Positions 1 to 56,644 of a DNA stretch of 64,000 bases are shown here, piece after piece (the first letter of the stretch is position 1; each line of letters begins with the position of its first letter). The stretch is taken from positions 333 to 64,332 of the forward strand of contig MWBO01000008.1 in assembly GCA_002071685.1 (NCBI GenBank), given 5' to 3'. A program made the translations under genes and the position numbers. The DNA is from a candidate division WS2 bacterium ADurb.Bin280 (GTDB taxonomy: Bacteria > Patescibacteriota > UBA1384 > DTJR01). The notes under the pieces were generated by a model that was not told the DNA's origin, searched no databases, and saw only the letters and a program-made list of their open reading frames with translations.

Positions 1-459
1 TGCGTCCTCCAGTTCGGCGACCGCTTCGAGTTCTACGAGGTGGAGTGGTCACACCTCGGCGTCCCGTCGATTGTCGAGCGCTCGGGGAGGGGATGCTGGG
101 CATTCAACCCTGAAGACGGTTCGATCGTCTGGAAGCAGGCGGACAGGGAGAAGGCAACCGTCGTCAGAGTAAGCTCTCCTGTTGCCTACGAAGTCTGCCT
201 CTGGCAGCCCGGAATAGCTCCGGAGTTAGCAGTGGCAGCTCTGGTGGGGGAGCTCGGCATGGGCCCGTCACAGGATGTACCGACCTCGATCGCCCTGAGG
301 TCACTCGACCAACAGATCCGCGAGAGAGCGCTGCACGCTGAAATCAAGTACCTCCTGCGGGAAGCCAGAAAAGCCGTCTGGAAAATGACGAACGGGCACA
401 GCTCCATCGCCCTATCCCTGCACGACGAGCTGGAGAAACTCACCAGCCAGCTCCACTAG
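1..459 (+). CDS. 3' end of a hypothetical protein encoded in a high-GC segment (partial; ORF is open to window position 1)
   Basis: Frame of the 40..459 ORF stays open back to nt 1. About 65% GC against ~37% for the window. No recognisable motif. Confidence 0.3.
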   Translation, partial: CVLQFGDRFEFYEVEWSHLGVPSIVERSGRGCWAFNPEDGSIVWKQADREKATVVRVSSPVAYEVCLWQPGIAPELAVAALVGELGMGPSQDVPTSIALRSLDQQIRERALHAEIKYLLREARKAVWKMTNGHSSIALSLHDELEKLTSQLH

Positions 460-468
460 CATCAAAAC

Positions 469-497
469 GGGGGCACCGATCTTGGGTCGGTGCCCCC
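469..497 (+). terminator. GC-rich hairpin GGGGGCACCGA-(7 nt loop)-TCGGTGCCCCC followed by TTCGCATTTTAT
   Basis: 11-bp perfect inverted repeat 10 nt after the stop of the GC-rich ORF. The GC-to-AT transition occurs here. Confidence 0.5.
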
Positions 498-563
498 TTC
501 GCATTTTATACAAAGACAGCTTGAAAAATTTTTGCTAAAATCATTATAAAAAAGGAGGGAGAT

Positions 564-727: not shown

Positions 728-1009
728 ATGATCTATTTTGCGATAGGATTGATAATCGGCATAATAATAGGAATTCTCTCAAGACCGGCAGCAGGGACCG
801 CAAACAAAGAGGGTTCGGCCAGAGAAGACAACATCAGTGAACTAAAAACTCTTTTTGAGCGAGAGGAAAAAGTGACAAATGACGATGTCGAGAAGTCACT
901 GGGTGTTTCTGATTCAACTGCGACCAGATACTTAGATCAACTTGAGAAGGACGGATTTATTGTGCAAATAGGAGAAGAGGGGAGATCAGTCTATTACCAA
1001 AAAAAATAA
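728..1009 (+). CDS. small membrane-anchored protein with a C-terminal winged-helix/HTH-like domain
   Basis: N-terminal TM helix IYFAIGLIIGIIIGIL. C-terminal STATRYLDQLEKDGFIVQIGEEGRSVYY resembles MarR/DeoR-type HTH. Confidence 0.45.
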   Translation: MIYFAIGLIIGIIIGILSRPAAGTANKEGSAREDNISELKTLFEREEKVTNDDVEKSLGVSDSTATRYLDQLEKDGFIVQIGEEGRSVYYQKK

Positions 1010-1044: not shown

Positions 1045-1674
1045 ATGAGCAAGCAAAATCTGATAAATAACCTGACAAATTCAGGCTTGATAACGAGACG
1101 ATCGATAAAAAAGGCCTTCGAGAGGGTTGATCGAAAAGACTTTGTTTTGCGAGAATACAAGGACCTTGCATACGCTGATCAGTCACTACCGATTGGCTTT
1201 GATCAGACTATATCGCAGCCATCGACAGTCGCTTTCATGCTCAAATTACTTAATGTAAAAGAAGGTGATCTGGTGCTCGATGTGGGATCGGGATCGGGCT
1301 GGACAAGCGCTCTCTTGGCACAAATAGTATCAGGCAGTGGCTTTGTGACTGCGGTTGAGAGAATAGAGGATCTAATTAATCGCTCAATCTTAAATACCAA
1401 AAAATACAGATTTGAAAACATCGCTTTTAAAAAGGCGGGTAAGGAACTCGGCTATAGCGAAAATGCCCCTTATGACAAAATTCTTGTTTCCGCAACAAGC
1501 GACGATATACCAGAAGAACTGATCGATCAATTGAAGCTGGAGGGAGTGATGGTTGTTCCGGTAAAAAATTCAATCCTTAGAGTCAAAAAAACAAAAAGCG
1601 GTGCTATTAGAAAAAGGGATTTTCCCGGATTTGTATTTGTCAAACTAATTAAGGACGAAGATGATGAAGATTAA
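1045..1674 (+). CDS. pcm: protein-L-isoaspartate O-methyltransferase
   Basis: DQTISQPSTVAFMLKLL followed by the VLDVGSGSGWTSALLAQ SAM-binding motif. Confidence 0.8.
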   Translation: MSKQNLINNLTNSGLITRRSIKKAFERVDRKDFVLREYKDLAYADQSLPIGFDQTISQPSTVAFMLKLLNVKEGDLVLDVGSGSGWTSALLAQIVSGSGFVTAVERIEDLINRSILNTKKYRFENIAFKKAGKELGYSENAPYDKILVSATSDDIPEELIDQLKLEGVMVVPVKNSILRVKKTKSGAIRKRDFPGFVFVKLIKDEDDED

Positions 1675-2032
1675 TCCATTGAACGAAGAAGAGAGGAGAA
1701 TCATTGAGGAAAAGGGAACGGAACCACCCTTCTCAGGTAAATACAACGACTTTTTCAAGGAAGGTGTCTTTGTCTGCAAAAGATGCTCAAATCCTCTCTT
1801 TTCTTCACAAGCAAAGTTCAAGTCATCCTGTGGCTGGCCCTCATTTGATGAATATTTTGAGGGGGCAGCGAGAGAGGTTCCAGACAGCGACGGAATCCGT
1901 ACAGAGATCGTTTGCAACAAGTGTTTGGCACATCTAGGACATGTTTTTCGTGGCGAAAATTTTACGCCAAAAAACACTCGACATTGTGTTAATTCGCTTT
2001 CGATTAAATTTATCCCAGAATTAAAGGGTTGA
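1661..2032 (+). CDS. msrB: peptide methionine-R-sulfoxide reductase MsrB
   Basis: CKRCSNPLF...SSCGWPSF...CNKCLAHLGHVF: two CxxC pairs and the conserved GWPSF/HLGHVF motifs. Confidence 0.85.
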   Translation: MMKINPLNEEERRIIEEKGTEPPFSGKYNDFFKEGVFVCKRCSNPLFSSQAKFKSSCGWPSFDEYFEGAAREVPDSDGIRTEIVCNKCLAHLGHVFRGENFTPKNTRHCVNSLSIKFIPELKG

Positions 2033-2067: not shown

Positions 2068-3381
2068 ATGGAATACGTTCAAGAAAAAAAGATGGGGGCT
2101 CTTTCGGTTGGTGCTGTAGTAACAGCGATTGTTTTGGGTGTTTTGGCAAACCTTGGAGTGGGTGCAATACTAGTAACAAAAAACAAACTGGAATTTGCCA
2201 AAGCGGAAAATCAAGCGGAAAAAATTTCACAAGAATCTGAAACGATAGAAGAGCTGATGCCATCGTTAAACTTTCTGAAAACGGGAGAATCTGGAAAAAA
2301 CGGAGCAAACGGATTTGACGGAAAAAATGGAACAAACGGAACAAATGGAATAAATGGAGAGAACGGTCAAAATGGAGTGAATGGCTCAAATGGCCAAAAT
2401 GGGGAAAACGGTCTTGATGGCGAGACGGGAAATCAAGGCGCAAAAGGTGTTGCCGGTGACACAGGAACGAAGGGATTGACCACCGGATTTATCACAAGTC
2501 TCGAAAGAACAACTCAAGAGCGAATTTATTATGTAAACTCGTCTTCAGGAAGCGACATAACAGGAGTCGGCAGTCTTGACAGTCCATACGCTACTGTACA
2601 AAAAGCGATTAATTCCGTTCCCGAAAAAATCTCTCACAACACGACAATTCAAGTGGCTGCAGGAACGTATCGCGAAGGACTGGATTTTAAAAAAATAATA
2701 GATAGCGGAAAACTTTTCACAATCAAGGGTGACGCTTCCGACCCCAACTCTTATCGCATCACCGGCGCAGACGCTGGTGCTGAAACAACAGCAGTTCGAA
2801 GCTACGGTTTGGTAAACAGAAGCAACGGCAAGACCGGCGGAGGCGTGAAAGTTGAAGGGCTTCGATTTGATTACTTCAAAAATGCCGGTTTTTATTCCTA
2901 CTTTAATGCAAATACTCAATTAAAAGACATTGTCTTTCATCGATGCGCAAACTCAACCACTAGTGTAATTTATATGGTATCGTTTTCAAGGATAGATATT
3001 TACGGATCGTTAAGTATCACAGGTGATGGCAACGATTCCGGCTTTTATGCTTATGCAGCAACCAATACGATTAATGTTTTTGATGGTGCAACAATAAATA
3101 TTTACAATGTAGCATTTGGAATCGACAGTTTTTCGGGACTCATTGTGAACTCAAGCTCAGGTGCTACATGGAATATCGACAATAGCCAAATTGCAAAAAC
3201 CGGAGTCGGGATACAAGCGTGGCACGGGGAAAGAATCAAAGGGATTAAGGGAACGATGAAAAATCTTAATTATGGTGTCTGGGCAGCAAACTTGGCGCTT
3301 ATAAGTATTGGAACAATCGAAATGACAAATGTAACCACAGCAATTAACGAAACGCTCGGCGGAGTGGTAGTCGAAAACTAA
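2068..3381 (+). CDS. membrane-anchored collagen-like repeat protein with a C-terminal right-handed beta-helix (pectate-lyase-like) domain
   Basis: N-terminal TM segment, then ~22 consecutive G-X-Y triplets (GKNGANGFDGKNGTNGTNGINGENGQNG...). These are followed by YYVNSSSGSD...PYATVQKAINSV...AAGTYRE, the typical cap motif of parallel beta-helix proteins. Confidence 0.7.
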   Translation: MEYVQEKKMGALSVGAVVTAIVLGVLANLGVGAILVTKNKLEFAKAENQAEKISQESETIEELMPSLNFLKTGESGKNGANGFDGKNGTNGTNGINGENGQNGVNGSNGQNGENGLDGETGNQGAKGVAGDTGTKGLTTGFITSLERTTQERIYYVNSSSGSDITGVGSLDSPYATVQKAINSVPEKISHNTTIQVAAGTYREGLDFKKIIDSGKLFTIKGDASDPNSYRITGADAGAETTAVRSYGLVNRSNGKTGGGVKVEGLRFDYFKNAGFYSYFNANTQLKDIVFHRCANSTTSVIYMVSFSRIDIYGSLSITGDGNDSGFYAYAATNTINVFDGATINIYNVAFGIDSFSGLIVNSSSGATWNIDNSQIAKTGVGIQAWHGERIKGIKGTMKNLNYGVWAANLALISIGTIEMTNVTTAINETLGGVVVEN

Positions 3382-3393
3382 TTAATTTAAAAA

Positions 3394-4680
3394 ATGGAAA
3401 AATCAAACAAACTCATCAGCCAAATTGCATCGTTTTTTATAGTATTGCTTGTTTCAATATCGTACTCTTACCTCGCCTATGCCCAACCCAAAAAAGCCAT
3501 AAACTCATTGAATGATTTTGTGTCCGGTATAAATGAAAAAATTGACAAGTTTTCCGCCGAAAAGATGAGCCAAGGAGAAAAGGGGAGCGACGGCATTGAC
3601 GGATCAAACGGTAAAGATGGTGAAAATGGTAGCGATGGAACAAATGGATTATCGGGTACAAATGGCGCTAATGGTACGAACGGAACCGATGGCACAAATG
3701 GCATAAATGGGATAAATGGCCAAAATGGATCAACTGGTATTCAGGGCGAAAAAGGCGACAACGGACCCAGAGGTCTTGCTGGCGACACCGAGGAGTTGGG
3801 AAGTATCACATCGGCTGCCATTACATATTATGTAAGCCCATCCGGAAGTGACGAAAACGGTGATGGTACGGTGGGCCTGCCCTTTGCCACAATACAGCAC
3901 GCTATCGATTCATTGCCTGATTTTCTAGCACACGAATGCAACATAATTTTGGCAGCGGGTACTTATCGGGAATCGGTAGTGATAAATAAAAACTCAGTTA
4001 ACGCAACGAATTACTTATATATAACAGGCAACACGTCAAGCCCCAACTCTTACATAATCTCAGGAGCAGATTCGGCTTCGCCAACAGAAGCTGTCAGGGA
4101 TTATGGCATAACCCTTTATGGTGATGCCGCCTATTATTTGCGAGGGATACGTCTTGATTATTTCAAGAAAGCCGGCTTGTTCATGGAAAATGGATCACGC
4201 TCTCGAATCCAAAATATTAATTTTAATTATTGCGCACAGGACAATTTGTATGGCGCTATAAGACAATCATCGTACACATACCTAGACATACGCGGAGCAA
4301 TAAATATCACGGGAAATGGCGGAAACAATGAATCGGGATTTTATTCCGCTGACGGTCCAAGCTATATGTACAATTACGGTACCTTTGCAATCAATATTTA
4401 CAAAGTGAAGTATGGCGTTTATTCAAGTAGTACCTCACAGTGGATCGGGGATAACACGGTGCAATGGACGGTAGACAATAGTGCCATAGATAAAATCGCC
4501 GGAAGCGCAGGCGTCTATTTTGGGGCGGGAGATCATGGACACGACTTCGAGCTTGATGTAAACAATTTTACATACGGAGTCTATCTGGACAATCTATCCC
4601 TCTTTGATGTAAACGTAGGAAATACATATACAAATGTAGATACTAGCGTAAGTGCGAACAATGGAAGTTTGTCGGTATAA
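3394..4680 (+). CDS. secreted collagen-like repeat protein with a beta-helix domain (paralog of 2068..3381)
   Basis: Signal peptide ending AYA|QP. G-X-Y run GEKGSDGIDGSNGKDGENGSDGTNG...GPRGLAGD. Then YYVSPSGSDENGDGTVGLPFATIQHAIDSL...AAGTYRE. Confidence 0.7.
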   Translation: MEKSNKLISQIASFFIVLLVSISYSYLAYAQPKKAINSLNDFVSGINEKIDKFSAEKMSQGEKGSDGIDGSNGKDGENGSDGTNGLSGTNGANGTNGTDGTNGINGINGQNGSTGIQGEKGDNGPRGLAGDTEELGSITSAAITYYVSPSGSDENGDGTVGLPFATIQHAIDSLPDFLAHECNIILAAGTYRESVVINKNSVNATNYLYITGNTSSPNSYIISGADSASPTEAVRDYGITLYGDAAYYLRGIRLDYFKKAGLFMENGSRSRIQNINFNYCAQDNLYGAIRQSSYTYLDIRGAINITGNGGNNESGFYSADGPSYMYNYGTFAINIYKVKYGVYSSSTSQWIGDNTVQWTVDNSAIDKIAGSAGVYFGAGDHGHDFELDVNNFTYGVYLDNLSLFDVNVGNTYTNVDTSVSANNGSLSV

Positions 4681-5169
4681 ATGAAAAAAGACACTGCAAT
4701 ATTTGCCTCGGGATGTTTTTGGGGAACACAATATTATCTCTCAAAAGCGGTCGGTGTTGTCAAAACCCAAGTCGGATACACAGGAGGGGAGCTAGAAAGC
4801 CCTACTTACGAACAAGTTTGCTCTGGTAAAACTGGTCATGTTGAGGCGGTAAAAGTTGAGTATGATCCAGATAAAACAAATTACGAGAATTTATCGAAAC
4901 TCTTCTTTGAAACTCACGACTTTTCTCAAAAAGGCGGTCAGGGGCCGGACATCGGGAGTCAATACGAATCGGTCATCTTTTATGCCAACAATCAAGAGAA
5001 AAAAATTGCCCAAGTACTCATTAATGAGCTTGAAAACAGGGGAATGAAAGTCGCAACAAAAATAGCACCGAGAAAGGAATTTTATGTTGCGGAAGAATAT
5101 CATCAAGATTATTATTTGAAAAACCAGCAAACGCCCTATTGTCATAGATACAGAAAACTCTTTTCCTAG
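4681..5169 (+). CDS. msrA: peptide methionine-S-sulfoxide reductase MsrA
   Basis: ASGCFWGTQYY active-site motif. Confidence 0.85.
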   Translation: MKKDTAIFASGCFWGTQYYLSKAVGVVKTQVGYTGGELESPTYEQVCSGKTGHVEAVKVEYDPDKTNYENLSKLFFETHDFSQKGGQGPDIGSQYESVIFYANNQEKKIAQVLINELENRGMKVATKIAPRKEFYVAEEYHQDYYLKNQQTPYCHRYRKLFS

Positions 5170-5176
5170 ATAGCGC

Positions 5177-5205
5177 CTTGACTTGAGGCCTCAAATCTGT
5201 TATGA
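5177..5205 (+). promoter_or_regulatory. sigma70-like promoter for typA: TTGACT-17 nt-TATGAT
   Basis: -35 at 5177-5182 and -10 at 5200-5205. The spacer contains the palindrome TGAGGCCTCA. Confidence 0.5.
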
Positions 5206-5245
5206 TTTGTTTTTTGTATCAAGCAAAACATTAAAAAATTGGTAA

Positions 5246-7054
5246 ATGGAAATTAGAAACGTCGCCATAATTGCTCACGTTGATCACGGAAAAACATCTC
5301 TGGTAGATGGATTTTTAAAGCAAACCGAAACATTTCGAGAAAACGAAGCTATTATGGATGAAACGCTGATAATGGACTCAAATGACCAAGAGAGGGAACG
5401 GGGAATTACTATTTTGGCCAAAAATACCTCTGTAATATACAACCAAACAAAAATCAATATCATAGACACCCCGGGACACGCCGACTTCGGAGGAGAAGTT
5501 GAAAGAAGTCTAAATATGGCCGACGGAGCGATTTTGGTCATAGATGCTCAAGAGGGCCCCATGCCCCAAACCAAGTTTGTTTTAAAAAAAGCCTTTGAGC
5601 TTGGACTCAAGATAATGGTAGTGATCAATAAAATTGATAAAAAAAACGCCGACATAGAAAGGACTCTGGGTAGAACGTATGATCTTTTTTTGGAATTAGC
5701 TACCGACGAAAAACAGCTAGATTTTCCTATTTACTATGCAATCGCCAAAGAGGGTAAGGCATGGGATGAATTACCGGACAATATAAACGAAGAAAAGAAT
5801 TTATTAATAATCTTAGATGGAATTATTGAAAATATTCCCACGCCACAAACTGATGTCGAAGGCCCACTGCAAATGCTGGTTTCGGCCCTTGATTACGATA
5901 ATTACGTAGGAAAATATGCTGTGGGAAAGATTAAAAGAGGCAAGGTAAAAACCGGACAAAAAATTACTTTGGTCAAAGATGGTAACGTTGCTCAAAGCGG
6001 AAAAATTGAAAAGATATTTCAGAATTTTGGCGTCAAAAAAAGCGAAATTAACGAAGCTCTCTCTGGTGACATCGTAGCGATTGCCGGACTTTCGCAAGTG
6101 ATGATTTCAGATACGATTTGCGACGAAAATAAAATAGAACCTCTTGAAAGGCCGAAAATCGAAGAGCCAACCCTGCGACTTTCAATGTATACCAATACTT
6201 CTCCGTTTGCCGGCAAAGAGGGGAAATTCGTGACCGCGCGCGAATTGCTTGAACGTATTAGAAAAGAGCTTGAGACAAACGTGTCCATGAGACTAGAGAT
6301 TGATCAAAATGGTCGATACATTGTTAGTGGCCGTGGAGAACTCCACATTAGCGTTTTTGTCGAATCATTGCGTCGAGAGGGATATGAACTGGAACTTGGC
6401 AAACCGGAGGTGATTACCAAAGAGATAGAGGGTGTTGTTTGCGAACCGGTGGAAGAATTGACAATTGATGTAGATGACGAATATGCGAATCAAGTAATAA
6501 ACGAAGTTAACAGAAGAAAAGGATTGATGATCAGCCAGGATAAGATCTCCGGATCTACAAGACTTATTTTTGAAATATCGACGAGAGGAACGCTTGGGCT
6601 TAGAAATGTCTTGATAAGTGCATCGCGAGGAACAGCAGTAGTTAACTCAATATTTTTGAGATATCAAAAAATGGGCGAAAAACTTCCCAAGATCAGAAAT
6701 GGTGCTTTGATCGCTTACGAGCAAGGAAAAGCAGTCACATATGGACTAAACGCAGCCCAAGAAAGGGGAGTGATTTTTATTTCACCACAAACTCAAGTTT
6801 ACGAAGGTATGATCGTCGGGCTAAATAACAGAGAAAACGATCTCGAGGTAAATGTTTGCAAAGAGAAAAAACTAACAAATGTCAGGTCTTCAAACTCCGA
6901 TATATCAGTCGCTCTAACACCTCCAACAGTCCTTTCACTCGAACAATCGATCGATTTTCTAGAAGACGACGAACTTCTTGAGGTCACGCCGTCATCCTTG
7001 CGCCTTAGAAAGAAAATTTTGAAAAATCAGGAAAGATACAAAAGTAAAAAATGA
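5246..7054 (+). CDS. typA: translational GTPase TypA/BipA
   Basis: G1 AHVDHGKTS and G3 DTPGHADF at the N-terminus. Length 602 aa, with EF-G-like domains. Confidence 0.9.
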   Translation: MEIRNVAIIAHVDHGKTSLVDGFLKQTETFRENEAIMDETLIMDSNDQERERGITILAKNTSVIYNQTKINIIDTPGHADFGGEVERSLNMADGAILVIDAQEGPMPQTKFVLKKAFELGLKIMVVINKIDKKNADIERTLGRTYDLFLELATDEKQLDFPIYYAIAKEGKAWDELPDNINEEKNLLIILDGIIENIPTPQTDVEGPLQMLVSALDYDNYVGKYAVGKIKRGKVKTGQKITLVKDGNVAQSGKIEKIFQNFGVKKSEINEALSGDIVAIAGLSQVMISDTICDENKIEPLERPKIEEPTLRLSMYTNTSPFAGKEGKFVTARELLERIRKELETNVSMRLEIDQNGRYIVSGRGELHISVFVESLRREGYELELGKPEVITKEIEGVVCEPVEELTIDVDDEYANQVINEVNRRKGLMISQDKISGSTRLIFEISTRGTLGLRNVLISASRGTAVVNSIFLRYQKMGEKLPKIRNGALIAYEQGKAVTYGLNAAQERGVIFISPQTQVYEGMIVGLNNRENDLEVNVCKEKKLTNVRSSNSDISVALTPPTVLSLEQSIDFLEDDELLEVTPSSLRLRKKILKNQERYKSKK

Positions 7055-7105
7055 ATCAGGGCGCCCGATACCTTGGTGTGGTACCGGACGCCCCGAGAGA
7101 ACCAC

Positions 7106-7423
7106 TCAGGGAGTGGGCTGGGGCACGACCTGCTTGCCGATCTTCAGGTTGAACTGTGCCACAGGACCGATCTCGGCAAGCACAGCACTCGCCTGGAACT
7201 TTTGGCGCATTCCCGGATTGCCCTCCACCTCGCAGGCGTAAACTATGCCCGCTTCCATGTCTCGGGCGAAGCGCGAGGGTATGAACACCTCGGGGAGAGT
7301 GCCGGGAAGGGGGTTACAGACCTTTCCCCCCGTGGTTATGTACGCAACCACCACTCCGAACGCCACCCCCTGACTCGTCGAGCCACGAACCCAAACGCAA
7401 GCATTGACCGGCATTCCAATCAC
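7106..7423 (-). CDS. hypothetical small protein (105 aa) encoded in a high-GC island
   Basis: SD AGGGAG lies 9 nt upstream of the ATG. The opposite-strand ORF 7073..7465 reads as low-complexity R/H-rich and is taken as a shadow. Confidence 0.35.
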   Translation of the reverse strand: MIGMPVNACVWVRGSTSQGVAFGVVVAYITTGGKVCNPLPGTLPEVFIPSRFARDMEAGIVYACEVEGNPGMRQKFQASAVLAEIGPVAQFNLKIGKQVVPQPTP

Positions 7424-7543
7424 TCCCTAGTCATATTGATCGCCCAAGCGATCAAAAAACCATAGCAAATAATTGCAAAAAATCAATCTTTATAAAGCAA
7501 AATTTTTAATTTATAGTTAATTTAATATTTAAGCGGGGGAAAA

Positions 7544-9298: not shown

Positions 9299-11683
9299 AT
9301 GAAATATTTTCCCAAATCATCACTAACCGCGCTCTCATTAATAATTTTGAGCGTGGCGATCTCCGGATGCAACGGCCTGAATTCTGAAGAAAATACAAAG
9401 ACAAATACAACAAAAATCAATAATCAATTTTATTACGGTGAGCAAACAAACGGATTGATGCAAATTAAATCCGCGCCCTTGGCATCTACTAATAAAATTT
9501 CAAAGTTGCTGAAAAATCTTTATGTCGATGCTTCAAAAGTTGAATCCGGCGAGACGGTTATGCAAATTGATAGTACCGGTAAAGCGATCAAAGTCTTGCC
9601 CGATGGAAGCCTTATTGTTGCCACAAACTTGAATGAGCACAAAAGTGCTGAGTCTATATCCATTTTTAATACAAAAAATAGCAAACTCGAAAATATCTAC
9701 AAACCCAAAGACAATTTTTTGATTGATGATTTTATCATAAATCCTTCGGGTAATTTAATAGCAACCTGGGAAGTTAAAAAATCACCCAAGGGCAAATTAC
9801 TAGGAGGCGAATCGAGGGTGATGGAAATAGATTTAAAGACCAATGAAATAGAAGAGATCATTCCCATCCAAAGGCTCGAAGGTGACATGAACCAAGACGA
9901 CACCAGCCTGGCACAGTATTTTGTAAGTTCGCAAGTTTGCCTTCAGCACCCAATTTTCTACGATAATAGCGACAGCATCTATCTCGACACCTTTTGTCCC
10001 AACACAATCGAAGGAACTGGATGGGGGGCGGGAATTCATGTAATAAAACATAAGAGTAAAAACGCTCAGAAATCACAAATGTTTGAAATAGGCAATTATT
10101 CATACAGACCGAGTATTTCATCCGATGGAAAAAAGATTGCTGTTGTACGGCCTAAAAACAGAAAATTTTCAACCCTAGAGGCATCGTGGGAGGCCCAGCA
10201 AAACCCAGACAGTCTTTATGTGGTTGATGTTGTTTCGGGGGAAGAAACACTCCTTTTTGAATCAGATGACACAAAAATTTCGGCCCAACCAGTAATTTCT
10301 AACGATGGTAAATACATTGGAATAACCACATTTGGAACAAATTCCGGAGAAGAAAAGGCCATCGCCCTTAACACACAGACTAAGAAAAGGATAAATATCA
10401 ATGTGTCAGCAGAAATGAAGCCGTGTTGTTTTGACGATGACAATTATCTCGTCTTTGCCCATTACGATTCAACTAATGCCGCGGGCATTTCTTATATGGG
10501 AGATGCGCCAAATTCATTTTTGGCCAGTACAATTAATTACGTCAACCCCAAAACTGGCAAGATTGAAAAGGAAGCGGACTTTCCAGACAACGATCCACCA
10601 AATGGCGAGATTATCCCAACATTAAATAAAAACTCGGAAAAAATTGAAGGATCATTAAATGCTCCGGCGGAAGGCGCTTCGAAAAAGAGTAGCTCAAATC
10701 AACAACAAATCATCGCATGGATGCCTGATGAGTCGCAAATAGCTTCTGAGAAAAAAGCCCAAATTTTTCATGAAAGTTTTACCAATAATGACTGCACAGA
10801 CAATTGTAAAAAAACGGTCGATCCTAACTCGCTAGATCCGGACTCATGCCCTCAAGACGTCAGAAATCCCGAAGCATGCGAAGTAGTAGAACTCCCTGAC
10901 GGAAGAATAGTTAAACTAAGTACATATTCGAAGCCTACGGGAGAGATCGATCCAGTTACCGGATTTGAGATAGCTACGCCATCAGAGTTGATGAAGTGGA
11001 AGTGGGAGCACTCCAAAGAAATGACCCTGGACCAGTGCAACAGGTGGATCAAATCGATCGGAGGAGTTAACACTTTTGAGAAAAGCAAAAAAAATCCCGA
11101 GATCTGGAAATTGACTTATGAAAATGCCCAGTATTTCAATTGCTTTGACTCTCCGCTTTATTTGTACCCGAAAGAAAAAAAGACTGTAAAAATTGAATCT
11201 GAAAATATAATTTTCAATACCTATCCGAAAACTGAAACTAACGGCTGGACCGTTGAGGCAAAACCCGACGGAACAATTATTCACCAAAATGAAAAGTATA
11301 ATTCAATTAAGTATGACTATAAGGGGATGCACACAACTCCCCCAAAAAATGGAGTCGTGGTAAGAAAAGAACAGCTGAGTAACTCACTAAGAACTTACGC
11401 AAATAATCTGGGACTTAATAAAACTGAGAGCGACGAATTTGTAATGTTTTTTACTAAAAAGCTCTCAAACTTGGGTCCATATATTCAAATTTCTCATTAT
11501 AATATGGGCGATTCAGAAAAAATTCTTAATCTAAAAATTGAACCAAAACCAGATACATTCATACCAATCGTTATGTACTTTAGGGAAATCTCAACACCAC
11601 TGTCTCTAAAAGAACCAACTTTTGACGATATACCGGAAAGAACAGGATTCACCGTTGTTGACTGGAGTGGAAAAATTGAGTAG
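9299..11683 (+). CDS. large lipoprotein with TolB-like beta-propeller repeats and a Cys-rich module
   Basis: Lipobox AISGC. Repeated S(S/N)DGKKIA / SNDGKYIGI blades. A C-x-C-rich segment NNDCTDNCKK...DSCPQDVRNPEACE. Confidence 0.6.
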   Translation: MKYFPKSSLTALSLIILSVAISGCNGLNSEENTKTNTTKINNQFYYGEQTNGLMQIKSAPLASTNKISKLLKNLYVDASKVESGETVMQIDSTGKAIKVLPDGSLIVATNLNEHKSAESISIFNTKNSKLENIYKPKDNFLIDDFIINPSGNLIATWEVKKSPKGKLLGGESRVMEIDLKTNEIEEIIPIQRLEGDMNQDDTSLAQYFVSSQVCLQHPIFYDNSDSIYLDTFCPNTIEGTGWGAGIHVIKHKSKNAQKSQMFEIGNYSYRPSISSDGKKIAVVRPKNRKFSTLEASWEAQQNPDSLYVVDVVSGEETLLFESDDTKISAQPVISNDGKYIGITTFGTNSGEEKAIALNTQTKKRININVSAEMKPCCFDDDNYLVFAHYDSTNAAGISYMGDAPNSFLASTINYVNPKTGKIEKEADFPDNDPPNGEIIPTLNKNSEKIEGSLNAPAEGASKKSSSNQQQIIAWMPDESQIASEKKAQIFHESFTNNDCTDNCKKTVDPNSLDPDSCPQDVRNPEACEVVELPDGRIVKLSTYSKPTGEIDPVTGFEIATPSELMKWKWEHSKEMTLDQCNRWIKSIGGVNTFEKSKKNPEIWKLTYENAQYFNCFDSPLYLYPKEKKTVKIESENIIFNTYPKTETNGWTVEAKPDGTIIHQNEKYNSIKYDYKGMHTTPPKNGVVVRKEQLSNSLRTYANNLGLNKTESDEFVMFFTKKLSNLGPYIQISHYNMGDSEKILNLKIEPKPDTFIPIVMYFREISTPLSLKEPTFDDIPERTGFTVVDWSGKIE

Positions 11684-11929: not shown

Positions 11930-13261
11930 ATGAGAAAAGAAGCTTCTGACATTGTTGCCAAATTACAACGCGAGGGCTTTTTGGCCTATTTTGCGGGGGG
12001 CTATGTTAGAGATTTACTGATGAAAAGAGAAAGTAGTGACATTGATATTGCCACTTCAGCTAAACCCGATGATGTAAAAAGAATATTTACAAAAACGATA
12101 GATAAGGCGCAAAAATTCGGCACCATCATCGTAATACAGGGCTCTCATCAATTCGAGGTAACGACATTTAGAAACGAAGCTATTTATCTTGATGGCAGGC
12201 GACCGTCACAAGTCAGTTTTACAAACGCCAGAGAAGATGCCCGAAGAAGGGATTTCACCATAAACGGTATTTTTTATGATCCGATAAAAGGCAATTTCAT
12301 TGATTACGTCGGAGGGATCGATGATGTAAAAAAAAGGGTAATCTCTTTTATAGGAAATGCGACAAATAGAATAAACGAAGACAAGCTCCGGCTAATCCGC
12401 GCCGTTCGCTTAAAAATAGTTTTGAATTTTCAATACAAAGACGAAACTTTTCAGGCAATCAAAAGAAATGCCAAAAAAATTCAATGCGTATCCGCGGAGA
12501 GAATCAGGGAGGAGGTAAATAAGATATTACAAAGCAAAAGCAGACACCTAGGGCTGGTTGAGTTATCCCAATCGGGTATCTTAAAATACATACTGCCAGA
12601 GGTCGAAAGATTGAAGGGCGTACCCCAGCCATACGAGTATCATCATGAGGGAGATTGTTTTACCCACATCTATCTTGCCTTAAAATCCTTAAGGCAAGAT
12701 GCCCCTCTTGAAGTTTGCTGGGGTGTTTTGCTTCACGACATAGCAAAACCGCAAACTCTTAAAAAAATAAATGGAAAGATCACTTTCAATGATCACGCCT
12801 CACAATCCTCAGATCTAGCAAGAAAGATATTGCAAAGATTTAAATTTAGCAAAAAATTTATCGAGGACGTATGTTATATTATCAGGTACCACATGTCTAT
12901 CGGACAGATAGAGCAAATGAAACCAAGCAAAAAAGTTGACTTTCTATTAAATGAAAGATTTGAATTGCTTCTAGAGCTTACGGAGGCAGATTCAAAGGGA
13001 ACATATCCGGTAAATCTGGAAATGGTAGCTGCTATGAAAAGATTTAACAAAATGGCTAGATTACAGGTCGATATCACCAAGCATTTAAAAGATGAACCAA
13101 AATTAATAAACGGAAACGATCTAAAAGAAATCGAACATATCGAGCAGAAAAAGTATGGAGAAATTTTGGAAGAAGTTTATGATTTACAAATCGAAGGAAA
13201 GTTAAAAACAAAAGAAGAAGCAATCAGTTTTATAAAGGATAAATACATAAATGGACAATAA
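11930..13261 (+). CDS. cca: CCA-adding tRNA nucleotidyltransferase with an HD domain
   Basis: GGYVRDLLM...DIDIAT polymerase-beta head, RDFTINGIFYDP, and HHEGDCFTH...LLHDIAK HD motif. Confidence 0.8.
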   Translation: MRKEASDIVAKLQREGFLAYFAGGYVRDLLMKRESSDIDIATSAKPDDVKRIFTKTIDKAQKFGTIIVIQGSHQFEVTTFRNEAIYLDGRRPSQVSFTNAREDARRRDFTINGIFYDPIKGNFIDYVGGIDDVKKRVISFIGNATNRINEDKLRLIRAVRLKIVLNFQYKDETFQAIKRNAKKIQCVSAERIREEVNKILQSKSRHLGLVELSQSGILKYILPEVERLKGVPQPYEYHHEGDCFTHIYLALKSLRQDAPLEVCWGVLLHDIAKPQTLKKINGKITFNDHASQSSDLARKILQRFKFSKKFIEDVCYIIRYHMSIGQIEQMKPSKKVDFLLNERFELLLELTEADSKGTYPVNLEMVAAMKRFNKMARLQVDITKHLKDEPKLINGNDLKEIEHIEQKKYGEILEEVYDLQIEGKLKTKEEAISFIKDKYINGQ

Positions 13262-14141
13262 AATAACCGAAGAGGATTTAAAAAATCTTTTCGACAAAGA
13301 CCTTGAAGACGTAGTTCCGGAAAACAGCTGGAAGGGATTTGAGGTAAAAGAGGAAAAAATTAAAATTAAAAAATCAATCAAAAAAAACGAAGACTACAAA
13401 AATATACGGCTGATCAGAAAAAAAATTCAGCAAGTCAAAAATAAAAAGAGAAAAAAAAGCGATAAGCAAATTGATCTATTTCTCAAGGCCTGTTTCTTGT
13501 CCGGATTAATTGTGGGGGCGTTTTTTGTTTTTATTAATTACGAGGGTTATTCAAAACAGCTCAAGTGGTCGTACTACCGCGAATATTTGAACGAACCACT
13601 TCCTGAAAAAAAGGACCCCTCGCCAACACCTCTGCCCAGTCCTACCGTTGAGCCAACGGCAGTCGTAGACGTTTTGCCCGTACTTGAAGCTCCAGAGATC
13701 AACATCGAAGACAACAGACTGATAATTGACAAAATAGCAGTTAACGCCAAAGTAATTTGGGACGTTAGCGAAAACAATATAATCGAAAAATTAAAGGATG
13801 GAGTCGTCCATTACGGGGGTACCTCAAAACCCTCTGACGGCGGCAATATTTTTCTAGTTGGCCACTCATCAAACTATTCTTGGATTAAAAGTGATTACAA
13901 CAGTATCTTTGCCCTTCTGGACAAGCTTGTAAAAGGTGACAGAATAGAGTTAAGGAGAGAGGGAAGAAGTTATTATTATGAGGTAATGGAGACAAAAATT
14001 GTTTCAAAAGATGACGTAAGCGTCATAAACAATACTGATAAGGAAATTTTAAGTTTGATGACCTGCTGGCCGATAGGAACCTCTCTCAAAAGAATGGTAG
14101 TGATATCTGAGCTTAAATATTATTCAAGCTGGACTAACTAG
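13251..14141 (+). CDS. sortase-family transpeptidase
   Basis: N-terminal TM anchor. Catalytic His in LVGHSS and Cys in LSLMTCWP (TLxTC-like), with a downstream Arg. Confidence 0.65.
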   Translation: MDNKITEEDLKNLFDKDLEDVVPENSWKGFEVKEEKIKIKKSIKKNEDYKNIRLIRKKIQQVKNKKRKKSDKQIDLFLKACFLSGLIVGAFFVFINYEGYSKQLKWSYYREYLNEPLPEKKDPSPTPLPSPTVEPTAVVDVLPVLEAPEINIEDNRLIIDKIAVNAKVIWDVSENNIIEKLKDGVVHYGGTSKPSDGGNIFLVGHSSNYSWIKSDYNSIFALLDKLVKGDRIELRREGRSYYYEVMETKIVSKDDVSVINNTDKEILSLMTCWPIGTSLKRMVVISELKYYSSWTN

Positions 14142-45636: not shown

Positions 45637-47901
45637 TTAAAGAATTGGAGCGGAAAAATTTTCTTCCTTGAGCTTTTCAAGGACTTCCATTTCTTTTGAT
45701 TTTTCTTTCTTGATCTCACCCTCCGCCTGCGTCTTGGACTGACAGTAATTTTCTCTAGAGTAGGCAATGATCTGTTCCTTAAAATTGAACGTCGGCTCTG
45801 GAATCGAAATTGTTTTGCCTGAAAATGCCTCTTTTACCTCATCATCTATCGATAACTTCAAGTATATTTCCCGAACGCCAAGATTGACGATATCGTTTGC
45901 GCCAAAGCGAGGAGAAAATTCTTTTTCGAGCAAGGCGGCATCCTCCGGACCTACCCTGAAAGCGATAATTGATCCGACATTTCCAAACACAGTGTTTCGA
46001 ATGGTGTCGCTAATTTGCGAAACGTACTGGTGAGCCAAGGACAGACTCAGTTTATACTTTCTGGCCTCCGACAAAATATTGGCAAAAGTATCTGTGGCAA
46101 AGTTTTGAAACTCGTCAACGTAGAGATAAAAAGGAACACGTTGACTTTCGGGCACCTCGGAGCGCGCCAAAGCACTTTGATAAATTTTGGTAATAATCAT
46201 CGCACCCAGAAGTGACGTATTCTCTTCTCCCAGAATTCCCTTGGGTAATTTAACCAGCAGAATTTTTTTATTATCCATCACATCCTGAACAGAAAAAGTG
46301 TTCTCTTCCTGTCCGACAATATTTCTAATAATTGTATTTGATACGAACTGACCAATTTTGTTCAAAATGGGCATGATCGCTTCACTATCAAATTTCTCGC
46401 TCCATCCGGCAAATTCATTGGTCCAGAAATTTTTAACTACCTGATCTTCGATAGATTTAATCGTGTCTTGCCTATATTCACGGTCGGTCAAAAGAAGCAA
46501 TATCGAGAGAACCGACGCCTTGGGAGCATCAAGAAGCGCTAAAATCGTCATTCTCATAACGTGCTCCAGTCGAGGAGTCCAGTTGGCGCCAAAGGCCTTT
46601 TTGAAGGTTTCTATAAGTCCGGTAGCAACTTGCTGACGATAAATCTTTTCCACTTTTTCAATCGGGTTAAACGAGATGGGATACTCTTCGTCAATCGGAT
46701 TGAAATAAATAACGCCTTTGACCCTCGATTCCGGAATGTAGGGAATGATGTTTTCCACCAAATCGCCGTGCGGATCTATTACACAGATACCGTGGCCGTT
46801 TTCGATGTCATTTTTGATGAGTAATTCTTGAAGTTTGGACTTTCCCGAACCTGATTTACCGATAGTGTACATGTGTCTAGCTCTGTCTCTCCTTTTTATT
46901 CCAAATACTTCTCTGATATTGCGATAGTTGGTGGTGGCAAAGGGACAAAGCTCTTCAGGCGAAGTATTGTCAACCGTTGGTAAGCCCAGAGGCGGTTCAG
47001 CTTTTGGAGAGAGAACTTTGTATAGGTTGGGTACCGAATCTGTATCTGTTGGAAAATGAAAAATTGTCGAAAGCTCGTCCGAGGAGAGATACATGGCGTT
47101 TTTTGAAAAACTAAGAGCTTTGACTTTCTGCAAACTCTCTTCGGTCAATTCGCTTACCGGATACTTGAATTCGTTATATTCGCTTTCCAGTTTATTGAAA
47201 ACTTGCGCTATCGGAGCAAGCTTTGCCTGCGCCGAAACATGACTGTCGCTATAGAGGATCATGTCAAGCTCGACTTGGTAGAGAAATTGTTTGTTTTTTT
47301 CGACAGCAGCGCCGACCGCTCTCGACCTCGTCTCTCCGGAAAGTTTTTTGTTAAAGATGTTTTCGACGACATTTAATCTCTGGCTTAAATTTTTATAGGC
47401 CAGATTGACCGATCTTTTTACCGAAAAAATTGCCTGATTGAAGTCAACAGGGGACACTTTTACTTGCAATACAAAACTGTCATAAGCCGTCAATCTATTG
47501 AGCTGATTATAAATATCCGCCAAGAAAGATCCTTCCATCTGATGAAAGACCAAGAAGGGGAATTGATCGCCATACTTGAGCTTGAGATTTGTATGGGCGG
47601 CATTTTCCACTTTGCCGAAGCTTATCTCCTTGGAAACCGTCTCTATTTCTATCTTGGGAAAAAGAGAATATAGCTGGTTTTCAAAGATACTGGCATAGCC
47701 CTCGCCGATCCTCGCTCCATAAAAAATCCTTTTTCCAATAACGTTAAGAGTAAAACAGAAGGGAACATTGGTCAGAATCTTATTGGAAGTTTTGATAAAT
47801 TCATAAAAGGTACCAATGTCAAACTTGGTATTCTGAGGAAGTTTGATGATGTATTCTCTGCTTTCGAAAAAGTCGTCCATAAATCCTTTATAATTTATCA
47901 T
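45637..47901 (-). CDS. P-loop ATPase of the HerA/FtsK/VirB4/TrwB superfamily with a ~330-aa N-terminal domain of unknown function
   Basis: Walker A GKSGSGKS, then VIDPHGDL, Walker B YLYVDEFQNF, and an AHQY/arginine-finger region. It is a paralog of 61826..>64000. Confidence 0.8.
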   Translation of the reverse strand: MINYKGFMDDFFESREYIIKLPQNTKFDIGTFYEFIKTSNKILTNVPFCFTLNVIGKRIFYGARIGEGYASIFENQLYSLFPKIEIETVSKEISFGKVENAAHTNLKLKYGDQFPFLVFHQMEGSFLADIYNQLNRLTAYDSFVLQVKVSPVDFNQAIFSVKRSVNLAYKNLSQRLNVVENIFNKKLSGETRSRAVGAAVEKNKQFLYQVELDMILYSDSHVSAQAKLAPIAQVFNKLESEYNEFKYPVSELTEESLQKVKALSFSKNAMYLSSDELSTIFHFPTDTDSVPNLYKVLSPKAEPPLGLPTVDNTSPEELCPFATTNYRNIREVFGIKRRDRARHMYTIGKSGSGKSKLQELLIKNDIENGHGICVIDPHGDLVENIIPYIPESRVKGVIYFNPIDEEYPISFNPIEKVEKIYRQQVATGLIETFKKAFGANWTPRLEHVMRMTILALLDAPKASVLSILLLLTDREYRQDTIKSIEDQVVKNFWTNEFAGWSEKFDSEAIMPILNKIGQFVSNTIIRNIVGQEENTFSVQDVMDNKKILLVKLPKGILGEENTSLLGAMIITKIYQSALARSEVPESQRVPFYLYVDEFQNFATDTFANILSEARKYKLSLSLAHQYVSQISDTIRNTVFGNVGSIIAFRVGPEDAALLEKEFSPRFGANDIVNLGVREIYLKLSIDDEVKEAFSGKTISIPEPTFNFKEQIIAYSRENYCQSKTQAEGEIKKEKSKEMEVLEKLKEENFSAPIL

Positions 47902-54925: not shown

Positions 54926-56644
54926 GTGGAAAATAAAACTTGTAAGCAGTGTGGGGAGGATTTTGTCGTAAGTGATGACGATTTGGCGTTTTTGGAAGAT
55001 ATAAGTCCTGAATTTGGTGGGCAAAAATATCTAATAGATAGTCCAAAACTCTGCCACAAGTGCCGACAGATAAGGAGATTAGTCTGGAGAAACGAAAGAT
55101 CACTTTATAAAAGAAAATCTGACAAAGGCGGAGAAGAGATCGTTTCTATTTATTCGCCGGACAAAACAGACTATAAAGTTTATTCAATCGATGAATATCA
55201 AAGCGATAATTGGGACGCCTTGGAATACGGATTTGAATTTGATTTTAATCTTACTTTTTTTCAGCAGTACGATAAATTGATACATCTCGTCCCTCGAAAA
55301 ACAAGCAACTCTATAAGAAATGAAAACAGCGAATTTTGTAACCAAACATGGCAAAGCAAAGATTCGTATCTTTGTTTCAACACCGGTTACGCCGAGAAAT
55401 GTATGTATTGCACCGAAGCATTCTATGTCAAGGACTGTGTGGATTGTTTTGACATAAGAAATTGCGAAGGTTGTTTTAACAGTTTCGACTGCGAAGGATG
55501 CAACAACTGCCAGTATATCGATCACTGCAAAAATTGTTCGGAGAGTTATTTCGCCTTTGACTGCATGGGCAGTCAAAATGTCTTTATGTCAACTGGACAA
55601 AGAAATAAGCAGTATGTCTTTGAAAACCAGCAACTCTCCAAAGAAGAATATGAATCTAAAATTGCACAATTCGACCTCGGTAATCGAACAGTGGTAGATG
55701 ATTTAAAAAATCGCTTCAAAGAGTTAAAAAAGAGCGCAATACATAAATTTAACCACAATATTCAAAGTGAAAATTGCACAGGTGATTACTTAAATCAGTG
55801 TCACAACTGCCATGACTGCTACAATTCATTTAAAGCTGATGGTTGCGTGCGAGTTGCCGGAATTGACGACAATTGCAAGCAATGCCGAGATATGAACATC
55901 ATAACCGAGGCAGAACTCTGCTATGAGGGCACGAGCATAACGGGATATAGAAATCTCTTTAGTGTCTTCGTCGTAAGTGGAAGCGGTAATATGTATTGTA
56001 ATTTTTGCGAGAATTGTAACGATTGTTTCGGCTGCGTTGGCTTGAACAAGAAACAGTATTGCATCCTAAACAAACAATATTCAAAAGAGGGGTATGAATC
56101 TCTGATGAGCAGAATTATTGAAAAAATGAAACAAGACGAACAATGGGGTGAATTTTTTGAACCCAGCATTTCACCATTTGGCTACAACGAAACTCTGATC
56201 AATTTATACGACAGCAAAACTAAGGACGAGGCTATCGCCATGGGAGCCAAGTGGCAAGAAAATGATTTTGCACTGAAGTTTGAGGGCGATTCATACGAAC
56301 CAGCAGAAAATATTACCCAATATGAAGATGAAGATAAGCAGAAAGAGATTGTCAATGGGATTTTGGTTTGTAAAAGCTCCGGTAAAGCTTTTAAAATAAT
56401 GCCTCAAGAGCTAGCATATTATCTTCAGCGCAGAATTCCGATACCACATAAACACTCCGAAGAGAGATTCATGGAGCTATTTCGGGAAAGAAATCCGCGA
56501 GAGCTTTTCGAACGGCAGTGTGACTGCGAAGAGGGTGATCACGATCACTCCGGCAGATGCGAGACACAATTCAAGACAACCTACGCACCAGATAGACCGG
56601 AGAAGGTTTATTGTGAAAGTTGCTACCAGAAAACTATAATGTGA
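54926..56644 (+). CDS. cysteine-rich repeat protein (572 aa, ~50 Cys in CxxC knuckles)
   Basis: GTG start. Runs such as DCVDCFDIRNCEGCFNSFDCEGCNNCQYIDHCKNC, CHNCHDC and CNFCENCNDCFGC. N- and C-terminal zinc-ribbon-like CxxC pairs. No family recognised. Confidence 0.6.
   Translation: MENKTCKQCGEDFVVSDDDLAFLEDISPEFGGQKYLIDSPKLCHKCRQIRRLVWRNERSLYKRKSDKGGEEIVSIYSPDKTDYKVYSIDEYQSDNWDALEYGFEFDFNLTFFQQYDKLIHLVPRKTSNSIRNENSEFCNQTWQSKDSYLCFNTGYAEKCMYCTEAFYVKDCVDCFDIRNCEGCFNSFDCEGCNNCQYIDHCKNCSESYFAFDCMGSQNVFMSTGQRNKQYVFENQQLSKEEYESKIAQFDLGNRTVVDDLKNRFKELKKSAIHKFNHNIQSENCTGDYLNQCHNCHDCYNSFKADGCVRVAGIDDNCKQCRDMNIITEAELCYEGTSITGYRNLFSVFVVSGSGNMYCNFCENCNDCFGCVGLNKKQYCILNKQYSKEGYESLMSRIIEKMKQDEQWGEFFEPSISPFGYNETLINLYDSKTKDEAIAMGAKWQENDFALKFEGDSYEPAENITQYEDEDKQKEIVNGILVCKSSGKAFKIMPQELAYYLQRRIPIPHKHSEERFMELFRERNPRELFERQCDCEEGDHDHSGRCETQFKTTYAPDRPEKVYCESCYQKTIM

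Follow-up and report, generated by a model that had tools for sequence, protein, structure and literature searches.

A tandem pair of putative collagen-stalked, beta-helix-headed surface proteins encoded between msrB and msrA in candidate division WS2 bacterium ADurb.Bin280

Two adjacent genes, here called A and B, were examined in a 64-kb stretch of DNA (the window) from candidate division WS2 bacterium ADurb.Bin280, an uncultivated, anaerobic-digester bacterium. Each gene encodes an N-terminal hydrophobic segment, a collagen-like stalk of uninterrupted G-X-Y triplets and a C-terminal head that is predicted to fold as a right-handed parallel beta-helix. On balance, A and B are probably subunits of trimeric, N-terminally anchored rod-and-knob surface fibres with binding heads. 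The sequence anatomy of the proteins, their paralogy, the fold class of the heads, the conservation of the pair and its synteny can be regarded as established. The original prediction, made from the sequence of the window, had placed two paralogous genes at positions 2068 to 4680 between msrB and msrA; these coordinates proved exact, and sequence comparison identifies the two proteins as paralogues (37% identity over 394 amino acids [aa], E = 4e-65).

Counting of the G-X-Y triplets gave 22 in A and 24 in B, in agreement with the predicted 22 to 28 uninterrupted, Asn/Asp-rich triplets, and both regions exceed the gathering threshold of the Pfam Collagen family (PF01391; 27.2 bits). Since a six-frame translation of all 64 kb contained no other G-X-Y run of more than four triplets, chance was excluded as an explanation for the runs in A and B. 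Asn is found at the Y position in 12 of the 22 triplets of A and in 11 of the 24 triplets of B; the A stalk contains 12 Asn-Gly dipeptides and no Pro, and the B stalk contains 11 Asn-Gly and 5 Asp-Gly dipeptides and a single Pro. The underlying DNA consists of degenerate tandem repeats of 9, 18 and 27 nucleotides (nt). The triplet pattern suggests triple-helix formation and a trimeric state; if triple-helical, the stalks would measure approximately 19 nm (A) and 21 nm (B), at 0.286 nm per residue.

The N-termini fit the prediction that one paralogue is membrane anchored and that the other carries a cleavable signal peptide, an assignment that follows from sequence rules. In A, two lysines (KK) precede a hydrophobic stretch of about 28 residues, within which no small-x-small cleavage motif was found; judging from the KK, this segment would act as a signal-anchor with an N-in, C-out topology. 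Residues 14 to 71 of A form one long helix in the AlphaFold2 model, with low to moderate confidence, comprising the transmembrane segment and a juxtamembrane helix, and the latter is a candidate coiled-coil that could nucleate trimerisation. B, on the other hand, starts with a classical n/h/c signal ending in a putative signal peptidase I (SPase I) site, AYA↓QP, and a site of this kind is kept in its orthologues (P0002, P0003 and the B-type gene of L017: AYA↓QP, SYA↓QP and AFA↓SP). Neither an LPXTG-like motif nor a lipobox was found in A or B. Elsewhere in the window, a sortase gene (13251..14141, plus strand) implies covalent wall-anchoring of some surface proteins.

As had been predicted, the repeats of both proteins are followed by a YYV..GSD..AAGTYRE cap: IYYVNSSSGSD..SPYATVQKAINS..VAAGTYRE in A and TYYVSPSGSD..LPFATIQHAIDS..LAAGTYRE in B, the N-cap pattern of the A head being YYV..GSD..PYATVQ..AAGTYRE. 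For the B head (residues 142 to 428), AlphaFold2 returned a model with many short strands, a mean predicted local distance difference test score (pLDDT) of 79.7 and a predicted template modelling score (pTM) of 0.82, although the alignment behind this model comprised four sequences only; in full-length A, pLDDT values were approximately 85 to 95 across residues 150 to 437. When both models were compared with the PDB by using Foldseek, the best 50 matches were all right-handed parallel beta-helix proteins, including pectin methylesterases (PMEs), GH87, GH55, GH28, PL6 and PL9 enzymes and RbmB, as well as the Lactobacillus reuteri serine-rich repeat protein (SRRP) adhesin and the P22 and CBA120 tailspikes. 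Similarly, the best 50 matches in BFVD were beta-helix proteins, with proteins of the tail-fibre and tailspike type among them (best E = 7.6e-4, TMq 0.62). A right-handed parallel beta-helix is thus supported by the models at the level of fold class, albeit through weak matches; the expectation of a beta-helix as in pectate lyases and phage tailspikes was borne out by AlphaFold2 and Foldseek alike, and the finding that could have overturned it, a C-terminal domain with another fold, was not obtained in either analysis.

Homologues of the head are numerous. A scan with a head profile over 1.84 billion representative proteins (HMMER) returned 3100 matches at E <1e-3 but only 10 at E <1e-30. In P0032, P0064 and P0024 among them (profile E of approximately 1e-22 to 1e-25), the segment that aligns with the head scores above the Pfam cut-off for Beta_helix (PF13229). 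P0017, which matches the head over its full length, ends in a Peptidase_S74 intramolecular chaperone (endosialidase-type), typically a hallmark of trimeric tail fibres, and some homologues are giant multidomain proteins of 2000 to 5500 aa. In a large group of homologues of about 420 aa (P0032, P0035, P0040, P0047, P0057 and others), the head follows a signal peptide and a conserved module of about 130 aa with the pattern VEFNYNGRVKV..GYFKFA..WSNDG..; since the head is fused there to a different stalk or adaptor, it is a swappable module. The PHROG profile phrog_4577 ("tail protein") matches both heads (E = 1e-11 for B and 2.5e-11 for A) at profile positions of approximately 121 to 231 of 340. 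The homologue P0007 is encoded directly ahead of genes for a putative membrane protein (PF06541) and a glucosaminidase-domain protein, neighbours that we read as a prophage lysis module; moreover, phage GenBank entries matching the head are annotated as tail fibre proteins, and the N-cap is common to the tail fibres of Staphylococcus phages and other phages. The head is therefore best described as a widely used module common to phages and cellular exoproteins; it appears to be homologous to part of phrog_4577, yet A and B, in their cellular housekeeping context, are probably not tail proteins. Sequence searches of the PDB with a single head or with the head profile gave nothing significant, the best matches being an asparaginyl-tRNA synthetase (E = 0.01) and carrot PME (E = 0.024). 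A marginal match between the N-cap (YV..GSD..GDGT..PF.T; 2527-2620 and 3823-3915) and the N-terminal domain of a eukaryotic asparaginyl-tRNA synthetase (8fa3, E = 0.01) is probably a coincidence of short motifs.

A collagen-stalked pair in A-then-B order was found in four lineages among approximately 15 billion predicted proteins: the window itself, L018+L002 (overlapping DNA from two JGI samples), L001/L014 and L017. In L018+L002, the lineage closest to the window, the order (helix-turn-helix [HTH] gene, pcm, msrB, A, B, msrA, bipA) is identical to that of the window. In the more distant L001/L014, an A-type gene, truncated by the start of its contig, and a B-type gene are followed by genes for a 179-aa transmembrane protein and an ABC transporter and by tmk, with no msrA; in L017, the A-type gene (P0010) has a B-type gene 9 nt downstream. 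The contigs of the relatives break in or near the collagen repeat of A. Across lineages, A and B are separated by 9 to 12 nt, and the stalks within pairs have similar triplet numbers (A/B, 22/24, 23/24 and 23/24). By these comparisons, the A-then-B order is a conserved unit, and since A-type and B-type proteins are present in all four lineages, their duplication is old and predates these lineages. A word-indexed homologue search with the A head returned only A itself, and P0010 was found by an exhaustive HMMER scan; a metagenome scan added only L014, from the same organism as L001. No close relative was found among the GTDB species-representative genomes, where the only matches were distant ones to the N-cap (Streptomyces, Corallococcus, Methanobacteriaceae and others). 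The nearest noncollagen homologue is P0011, whose 1.9-kb contig is uninformative on gene context.

Between the window and L018+L002, identity is highest for the B head and BipA (both 86%), followed by msrB (80%), pcm (73%), the A head (70%), msrA (68%) and the winged-helix protein (57%). These values indicate strong purifying selection on the B head, and its conservation to the degree of BipA argues against a rapidly diversifying adhesin; together with the age of the duplication, it speaks against the earlier suggestion that the duplication reflects diversification. The earlier claim that adjacency or fusion is the normal state of msrA and msrB is overstated, as many bacteria, including Escherichia coli, keep them unlinked. 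For the window's own lineage, an insertion between msrB and msrA is nevertheless plausible from gene order: L018+L002 share the arrangement, and msrA directly follows msrB in four contigs from three organisms that have the next most similar msrB (L019, L020 and L022/L023). Synteny around msrAB in relatives, named beforehand as the comparison that could count against the insertion, pointed in part the other way, since in L001/L014 the pair is followed by other genes. As there is no msrA downstream of the L001/L014 pair, we conclude that the msr linkage is lineage specific and that the pair is self-contained.

In the model that we favour, each subunit would comprise, from the N to the C terminus, a membrane anchor (A) or a cleavable export signal (B), a short helical segment as a possible nucleus for trimerisation, a collagen-type triple helix of 22 to 24 G-X-Y triplets and 19 to 21 nm in length, and, at the tip, a right-handed beta-helix knob of about 290 residues that would be held off the cell. 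The knob would be likelier to bind than to cleave its target, a glycan or other surface polymer. A would serve as the membrane anchor, and B would be held on the cell through co-assembly with A, either in mixed triple helices or by lateral association of homotrimers; alternatively, B might represent a released, soluble form. Retention of B by co-assembly is suggested because A appears to be anchored, B has no retention signal and the two genes keep their order at such short distances; the similarity of the stalk lengths within pairs, together with this fixed order and close spacing, adds to the appeal of co-assembly. We speculate that the pair may constitute an obligate heterotrimeric bacterial collagen in which an anchored chain retains a cleaved one, and a role in attachment to another cell is possible.

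Several observations weigh against this model. A Pro-poor, Asn-rich stalk is not an especially stabilising one. Moreover, with Pro as the commonest X residue and Thr as the commonest Y residue in bacterial collagens (review PMC8968730), stalks that are almost Pro-free and have Asn at half of the Y positions are atypical. The structural matches of the heads are all weak: the best E values against the PDB were 5e-3 to 7e-3 (4.9e-3 for the A model), with template modelling (TM) scores of at most 0.49, and E <1e-3 was reached in only one of three structural searches (BFVD). Additionally, Pfam Beta_helix (PF13229) gave no direct match to A or B at E <1. Stalk length is also variable: 16 triplets were counted in the B orthologue of L001 (869-2080) and 21 in that of L014 (869-2125), the two proteins being identical except for exactly five triplets (15 residues), a duplicated GLQGIQGEKGDTGAQ. 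This represents a stalk-length polymorphism like those in BclA and Scl genes, and its occurrence between two samples of one organism makes a heterotrimer of strictly matched chain lengths less likely, provided that A does not vary as well. Finally, the A orthologue of L018 has a TAA codon directly after ..GTYRE (at approximately 2309-2311), where L002, nearly identical over the compared stretches, has GAA (at approximately 31-33); this TAA may be a premature stop, with A pseudogenised in one population, or a sequencing error.

The atypical stalk composition (PMC8968730) could also be taken to mean that the G-X-Y region is a flexible low-complexity spacer, or belongs to another polyproline-II-type assembly, and that A and B are monomeric beta-helix exoproteins. 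The AlphaFold2 monomer models, which show no structure in the stalk (pLDDT of <40 in the A stalk), seem to point in the same direction, but triple helices are beyond the reach of a monomer model, and the low values are therefore uninformative. We consider this explanation improbable, given that Gly is found at every third position for 66 to 72 residues and is retained from lineage to lineage, in contrast to the drifting X and Y residues, a strict periodicity for which a disordered spacer has no need, and that repeat number changes in whole triplets (the 15-residue step described above). A prophage tail-fibre remnant or a recently transferred cassette, without function for the cell, might likewise account for heads that are homologous to phage tail proteins (phrog_4577), for collagen-like segments, which are common in phage fibres, and for the location of the pair at different loci in different lineages. 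However, A and B both have N-terminal export or anchor signals, which are absent from virion proteins; neither reading frame is interrupted, both are kept in several lineages, and the B head is conserved to the degree of BipA; and the pair forms a compact cluster with pcm, msrB and msrA in a region of normal G+C content, with no phage genes within 64 kb. On the strength of these export signals, the housekeeping surroundings and the unremarkable G+C content, a prophage origin was rejected as extremely improbable.

Another explanation concerns the function of the heads, which might be active, stalk-displayed polysaccharide-modifying enzymes (a PME-like esterase, a lyase or a glycosidase) that, like phage depolymerase tailspikes, break down polymers outside the cell or on neighbouring cells, either to feed or to penetrate. 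Carbohydrate-active enzymes make up most of the characterised proteins with this fold, and CE8 PMEs are the best Pfam match of A and B apart from Collagen and account for several of the top structural matches. The Pectinesterase scores (PF01095; 17.9 and 18.1 bits) are nonetheless below the gathering cut-off of 27 bits. To compare catalytic sites, we used the carrot PME (1gq8), whose catalytic residues we take to be Gln113, Gln135, Asp136, Asp157 (general acid/base) and Arg225; the comparison rests on a weak profile alignment (E = 0.024). In this alignment, all six heads have Asn, Thr or Ser in place of Asp157, and nothing in the heads aligned to the Arg225/Trp227 GRPW motif. Gln135/Asp136 are kept in some B-type heads (QDxLY), where the surrounding pattern C..QDxLY ... 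G(A/T)(I/V)x(I/F)..G resembles the PME signature, but are Q-E in P0002 and are replaced in all A-type heads. The invariant elements of the A and B heads, namely a W..DNS.I.K motif and the N-cap, match no known catalytic motif. By these sequence comparisons, A and B are not members of the CE8 PMEs, and an enzymatic role is unlikely, though an unrecognised active site is conceivable. Since the PME catalytic residues are not conserved, a binding head is the likelier alternative, and the carbohydrate-cleaving option of the original prediction loses ground; most likely, the head would bind a glycan or other surface polymer rather than cleave it.

The placement of A and B among protein-repair genes raises the question of a functional link. 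The pcm-msrB-A-B-msrA arrangement was found only in the window and in L018+L002. Asn-Gly and Asp-Gly are the most isoaspartate-prone sequences in proteins, and the two stalks together contain 23 Asn-Gly and 7 Asp-Gly dipeptides; stalks of msr/pcm-linked lineages contain 7 to 12 Asn-Gly dipeptides each, versus 2 in the B stalks of L001/L014, which have no msrA downstream. Co-expression of Pcm and both Msr enzymes could protect unfolded A and B chains before export or, alternatively, fibre production might be coupled to protein-damage stress. Collagen-like proteins encoded alongside their own modifying enzymes have a precedent (Iyer et al. 2010, PMC2938197). A functional operon of this kind is nevertheless very improbable, because Msr and Pcm are cytoplasmic and because L001/L014 lack the linkage, at any rate on the downstream side.

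Several known systems resemble A and B in part. BclA of the Bacillus exosporium has the same polarity (N-terminal attachment, G-X-Y stalk and C-terminal knob) and a strain-variable repeat number, as is also seen in the B orthologues. In contrast, its head is a C1q/TNF-like jelly-roll rather than a right-handed beta-helix, its stalk is GPT-rich and glycosylated rather than almost Pro-free and Asn-rich, and it attaches via an exosporium protein instead of a transmembrane helix or signal peptide; outside the G-X-Y region, there is no sequence relationship. The streptococcal Scl1/Scl2 and Legionella Lcl proteins are likewise surface-exposed collagen-like "lollipops", but Scl proteins have the opposite polarity, with a C-terminal LPXTG anchor, which A and B lack, and an N-terminal globular V domain. 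The NCBIfam models NF038329, NF038330 (Scl1/Scl2) and NF046116 (Lcl) score 39 to 52 bits, in the G-X-Y region only, against cut-offs of 325 to 500, and on these scores A and B are not members of the Scl1/Scl2 or Lcl families.

By analogy, A follows the domain logic of collagen XIII/XVII, MARCO and SR-A, the type II transmembrane collagens and scavenger receptors of animals, which consist of an N-terminal signal-anchor, a juxtamembrane helical segment, a collagenous rod and a distal globular head. The N-terminal trimerisation sequence of such proteins is treated by Snellman et al. (2000), as cited in the review PMC8968730. Unlike these proteins, A is bacterial, has no hydroxyproline and carries a beta-helix head, and there is no homology outside the G-X-Y region. 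With phage tail fibres and tailspikes (PHROG 4577; P22 tailspike-like), A and B share homologous heads, with tailspikes among the structural matches, but they are cellular, exported and membrane-anchored by prediction, in a housekeeping context; no depolymerase catalytic site was identified in their heads, which cover the PHROG profile only in part. The SRRP binding region of L. reuteri (PDB 5nxk), a pectin-lyase fold used for binding and not for catalysis, is among the structural matches, although the match is weak (E = 0.06 to 0.14) and the Ser-rich repeat stalk and anchoring of SRRP differ. Lastly, the CE8 PMEs share the fold class of the heads but differ from them in the Pfam score and catalytic Asp/Arg positions discussed above. 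Our literature search returned nothing relevant on collagen-like proteins with a beta-helix, on Patescibacteria or isoaspartate in this connection, or on WS2/ADurb.Bin280.

In the window (Table 1), A and B are on the same strand, 12 nt apart. The end of pcm overlaps the start of msrB by 14 nt, msrB and A are separated by 35 nt, and the stop codon of B abuts the ATG of msrA (4681), with zero intergenic gap. The sole strong promoter-like site downstream of B is located at 5178-5206, ahead of bipA, and msrA is probably co-transcribed with A and B. No signal peptide was found in msrA or msrB, and the idea that they provide extracytoplasmic Msr partners for the fibres was rejected for this reason. 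The wider neighbourhood is of a housekeeping nature (murA-like, mreB, nusA, clpB, relA/spoT, class II ribonucleotide reductase, addA-like and ftsA genes), and the G+C profile of the window showed no anomaly at the A/B region.

Table 1. Positions of genes and predicted protein regions in the window
Feature	Coordinates	Strand	Description or evidence
Small membrane-tethered winged-helix (MarR/HTH_24-like) protein	728..1009	+	Pfam MarR E = 1e-5, HTH_24 E = 4e-5
pcm, protein-L-isoaspartate O-methyltransferase	1045..1674	+	Pfam PCMT E = 1.2e-56
msrB, methionine-R-sulfoxide reductase	1661..2032	+	Pfam SelR E = 3.7e-41
Gene A	2068..3381	+	437 aa; putative membrane-anchored collagen-stalk/beta-helix-head protein
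A putative hydrophobic signal-anchor, residues ~9-37	2092..2178	+	Top Kyte-Doolittle windows at residues 9-36
A predicted juxtamembrane amphipathic helix, residues 38-72	2179..2283	+	AlphaFold2 helix continuous to residue 71
A collagen-like region, residues 73-138	2284..2481	+	22 uninterrupted G-X-Y triplets; Pfam Collagen 38.5 bits
A head, predicted right-handed parallel beta-helix domain	2521..3378	+	AlphaFold2, Foldseek, phrog_4577
Gene B	3394..4680	+	428 aa; putative secreted collagen-stalk/beta-helix-head protein
B putative signal peptide, residues 1-30	3394..3483	+	SPase I site AYA↓QP, read from sequence
B collagen-like region, residues 61-132	3574..3789	+	24 uninterrupted G-X-Y triplets; Pfam Collagen 49.8 bits
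B head, predicted right-handed parallel beta-helix domain	3817..4677	+	AlphaFold2, Foldseek, profile homologues
msrA, methionine-S-sulfoxide reductase	4681..5169	+	Pfam PMSR E = 1.8e-58
bipA/typA	5246..7054		Next gene after msrA

Some further features of the window were recorded. Between bipA and a patatin-like gene lies a G+C-rich island (7056-7440; 0.53 versus approximately 0.40) with a minus-strand open reading frame (ORF) of 105 aa (7106..7423; GTG start, no Pfam match), which is followed by a 17-bp GC-rich hairpin and a T-run (minus strand, 7096..7056). The island has no Rfam match and an RNA fold z-score of -3.9, and approximately 190 nt of it (7069-7255) are missing from the relative L002; it could be a small foreign gene or a structured RNA of unknown type. 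The edge of the window (1-500) has a G+C content of 0.61, a composition foreign to the rest of the window, and contains an ORF of 139 aa (40..459; GTG start) with no Pfam or Rfam match. No tRNA or tmRNA genes (ARAGORN) and no Rfam families at the gathering threshold were found in the 64 kb. Two genes for TraG/VirD4-like type IV coupling proteins (TrwB_AAD_bind, TraG-D_C) are located less than 16 kb apart (45637-47901 and 61826-63931, both on the minus strand), and no Pfam match was obtained, at E up to 1e-3 and 1e-5, for two large plus-strand ORFs, 9299-11683 (794 aa) and 54926-56644 (572 aa).

The A/B pair is real and rare, and it represents a variation on known bacterial collagen-like surface proteins; as such proteins with varied heads are well established, the advance would be incremental. 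If our model is correct, the pair would be a bacterial counterpart of the animal type II transmembrane collagens, in which a rod of defined length presents a phage-type receptor-binding knob some 20 to 25 nm off the membrane, and it would provide an example of a tail-fibre tip domain common to phages and cellular surface proteins. Should the Pro-poor, Asn-rich stalk form a stable triple helix, it would be of interest for collagen biophysics and biomaterials. For a candidate phylum without a cultivated member, A and B would be a concrete candidate for cell-cell or cell-polymer contact.

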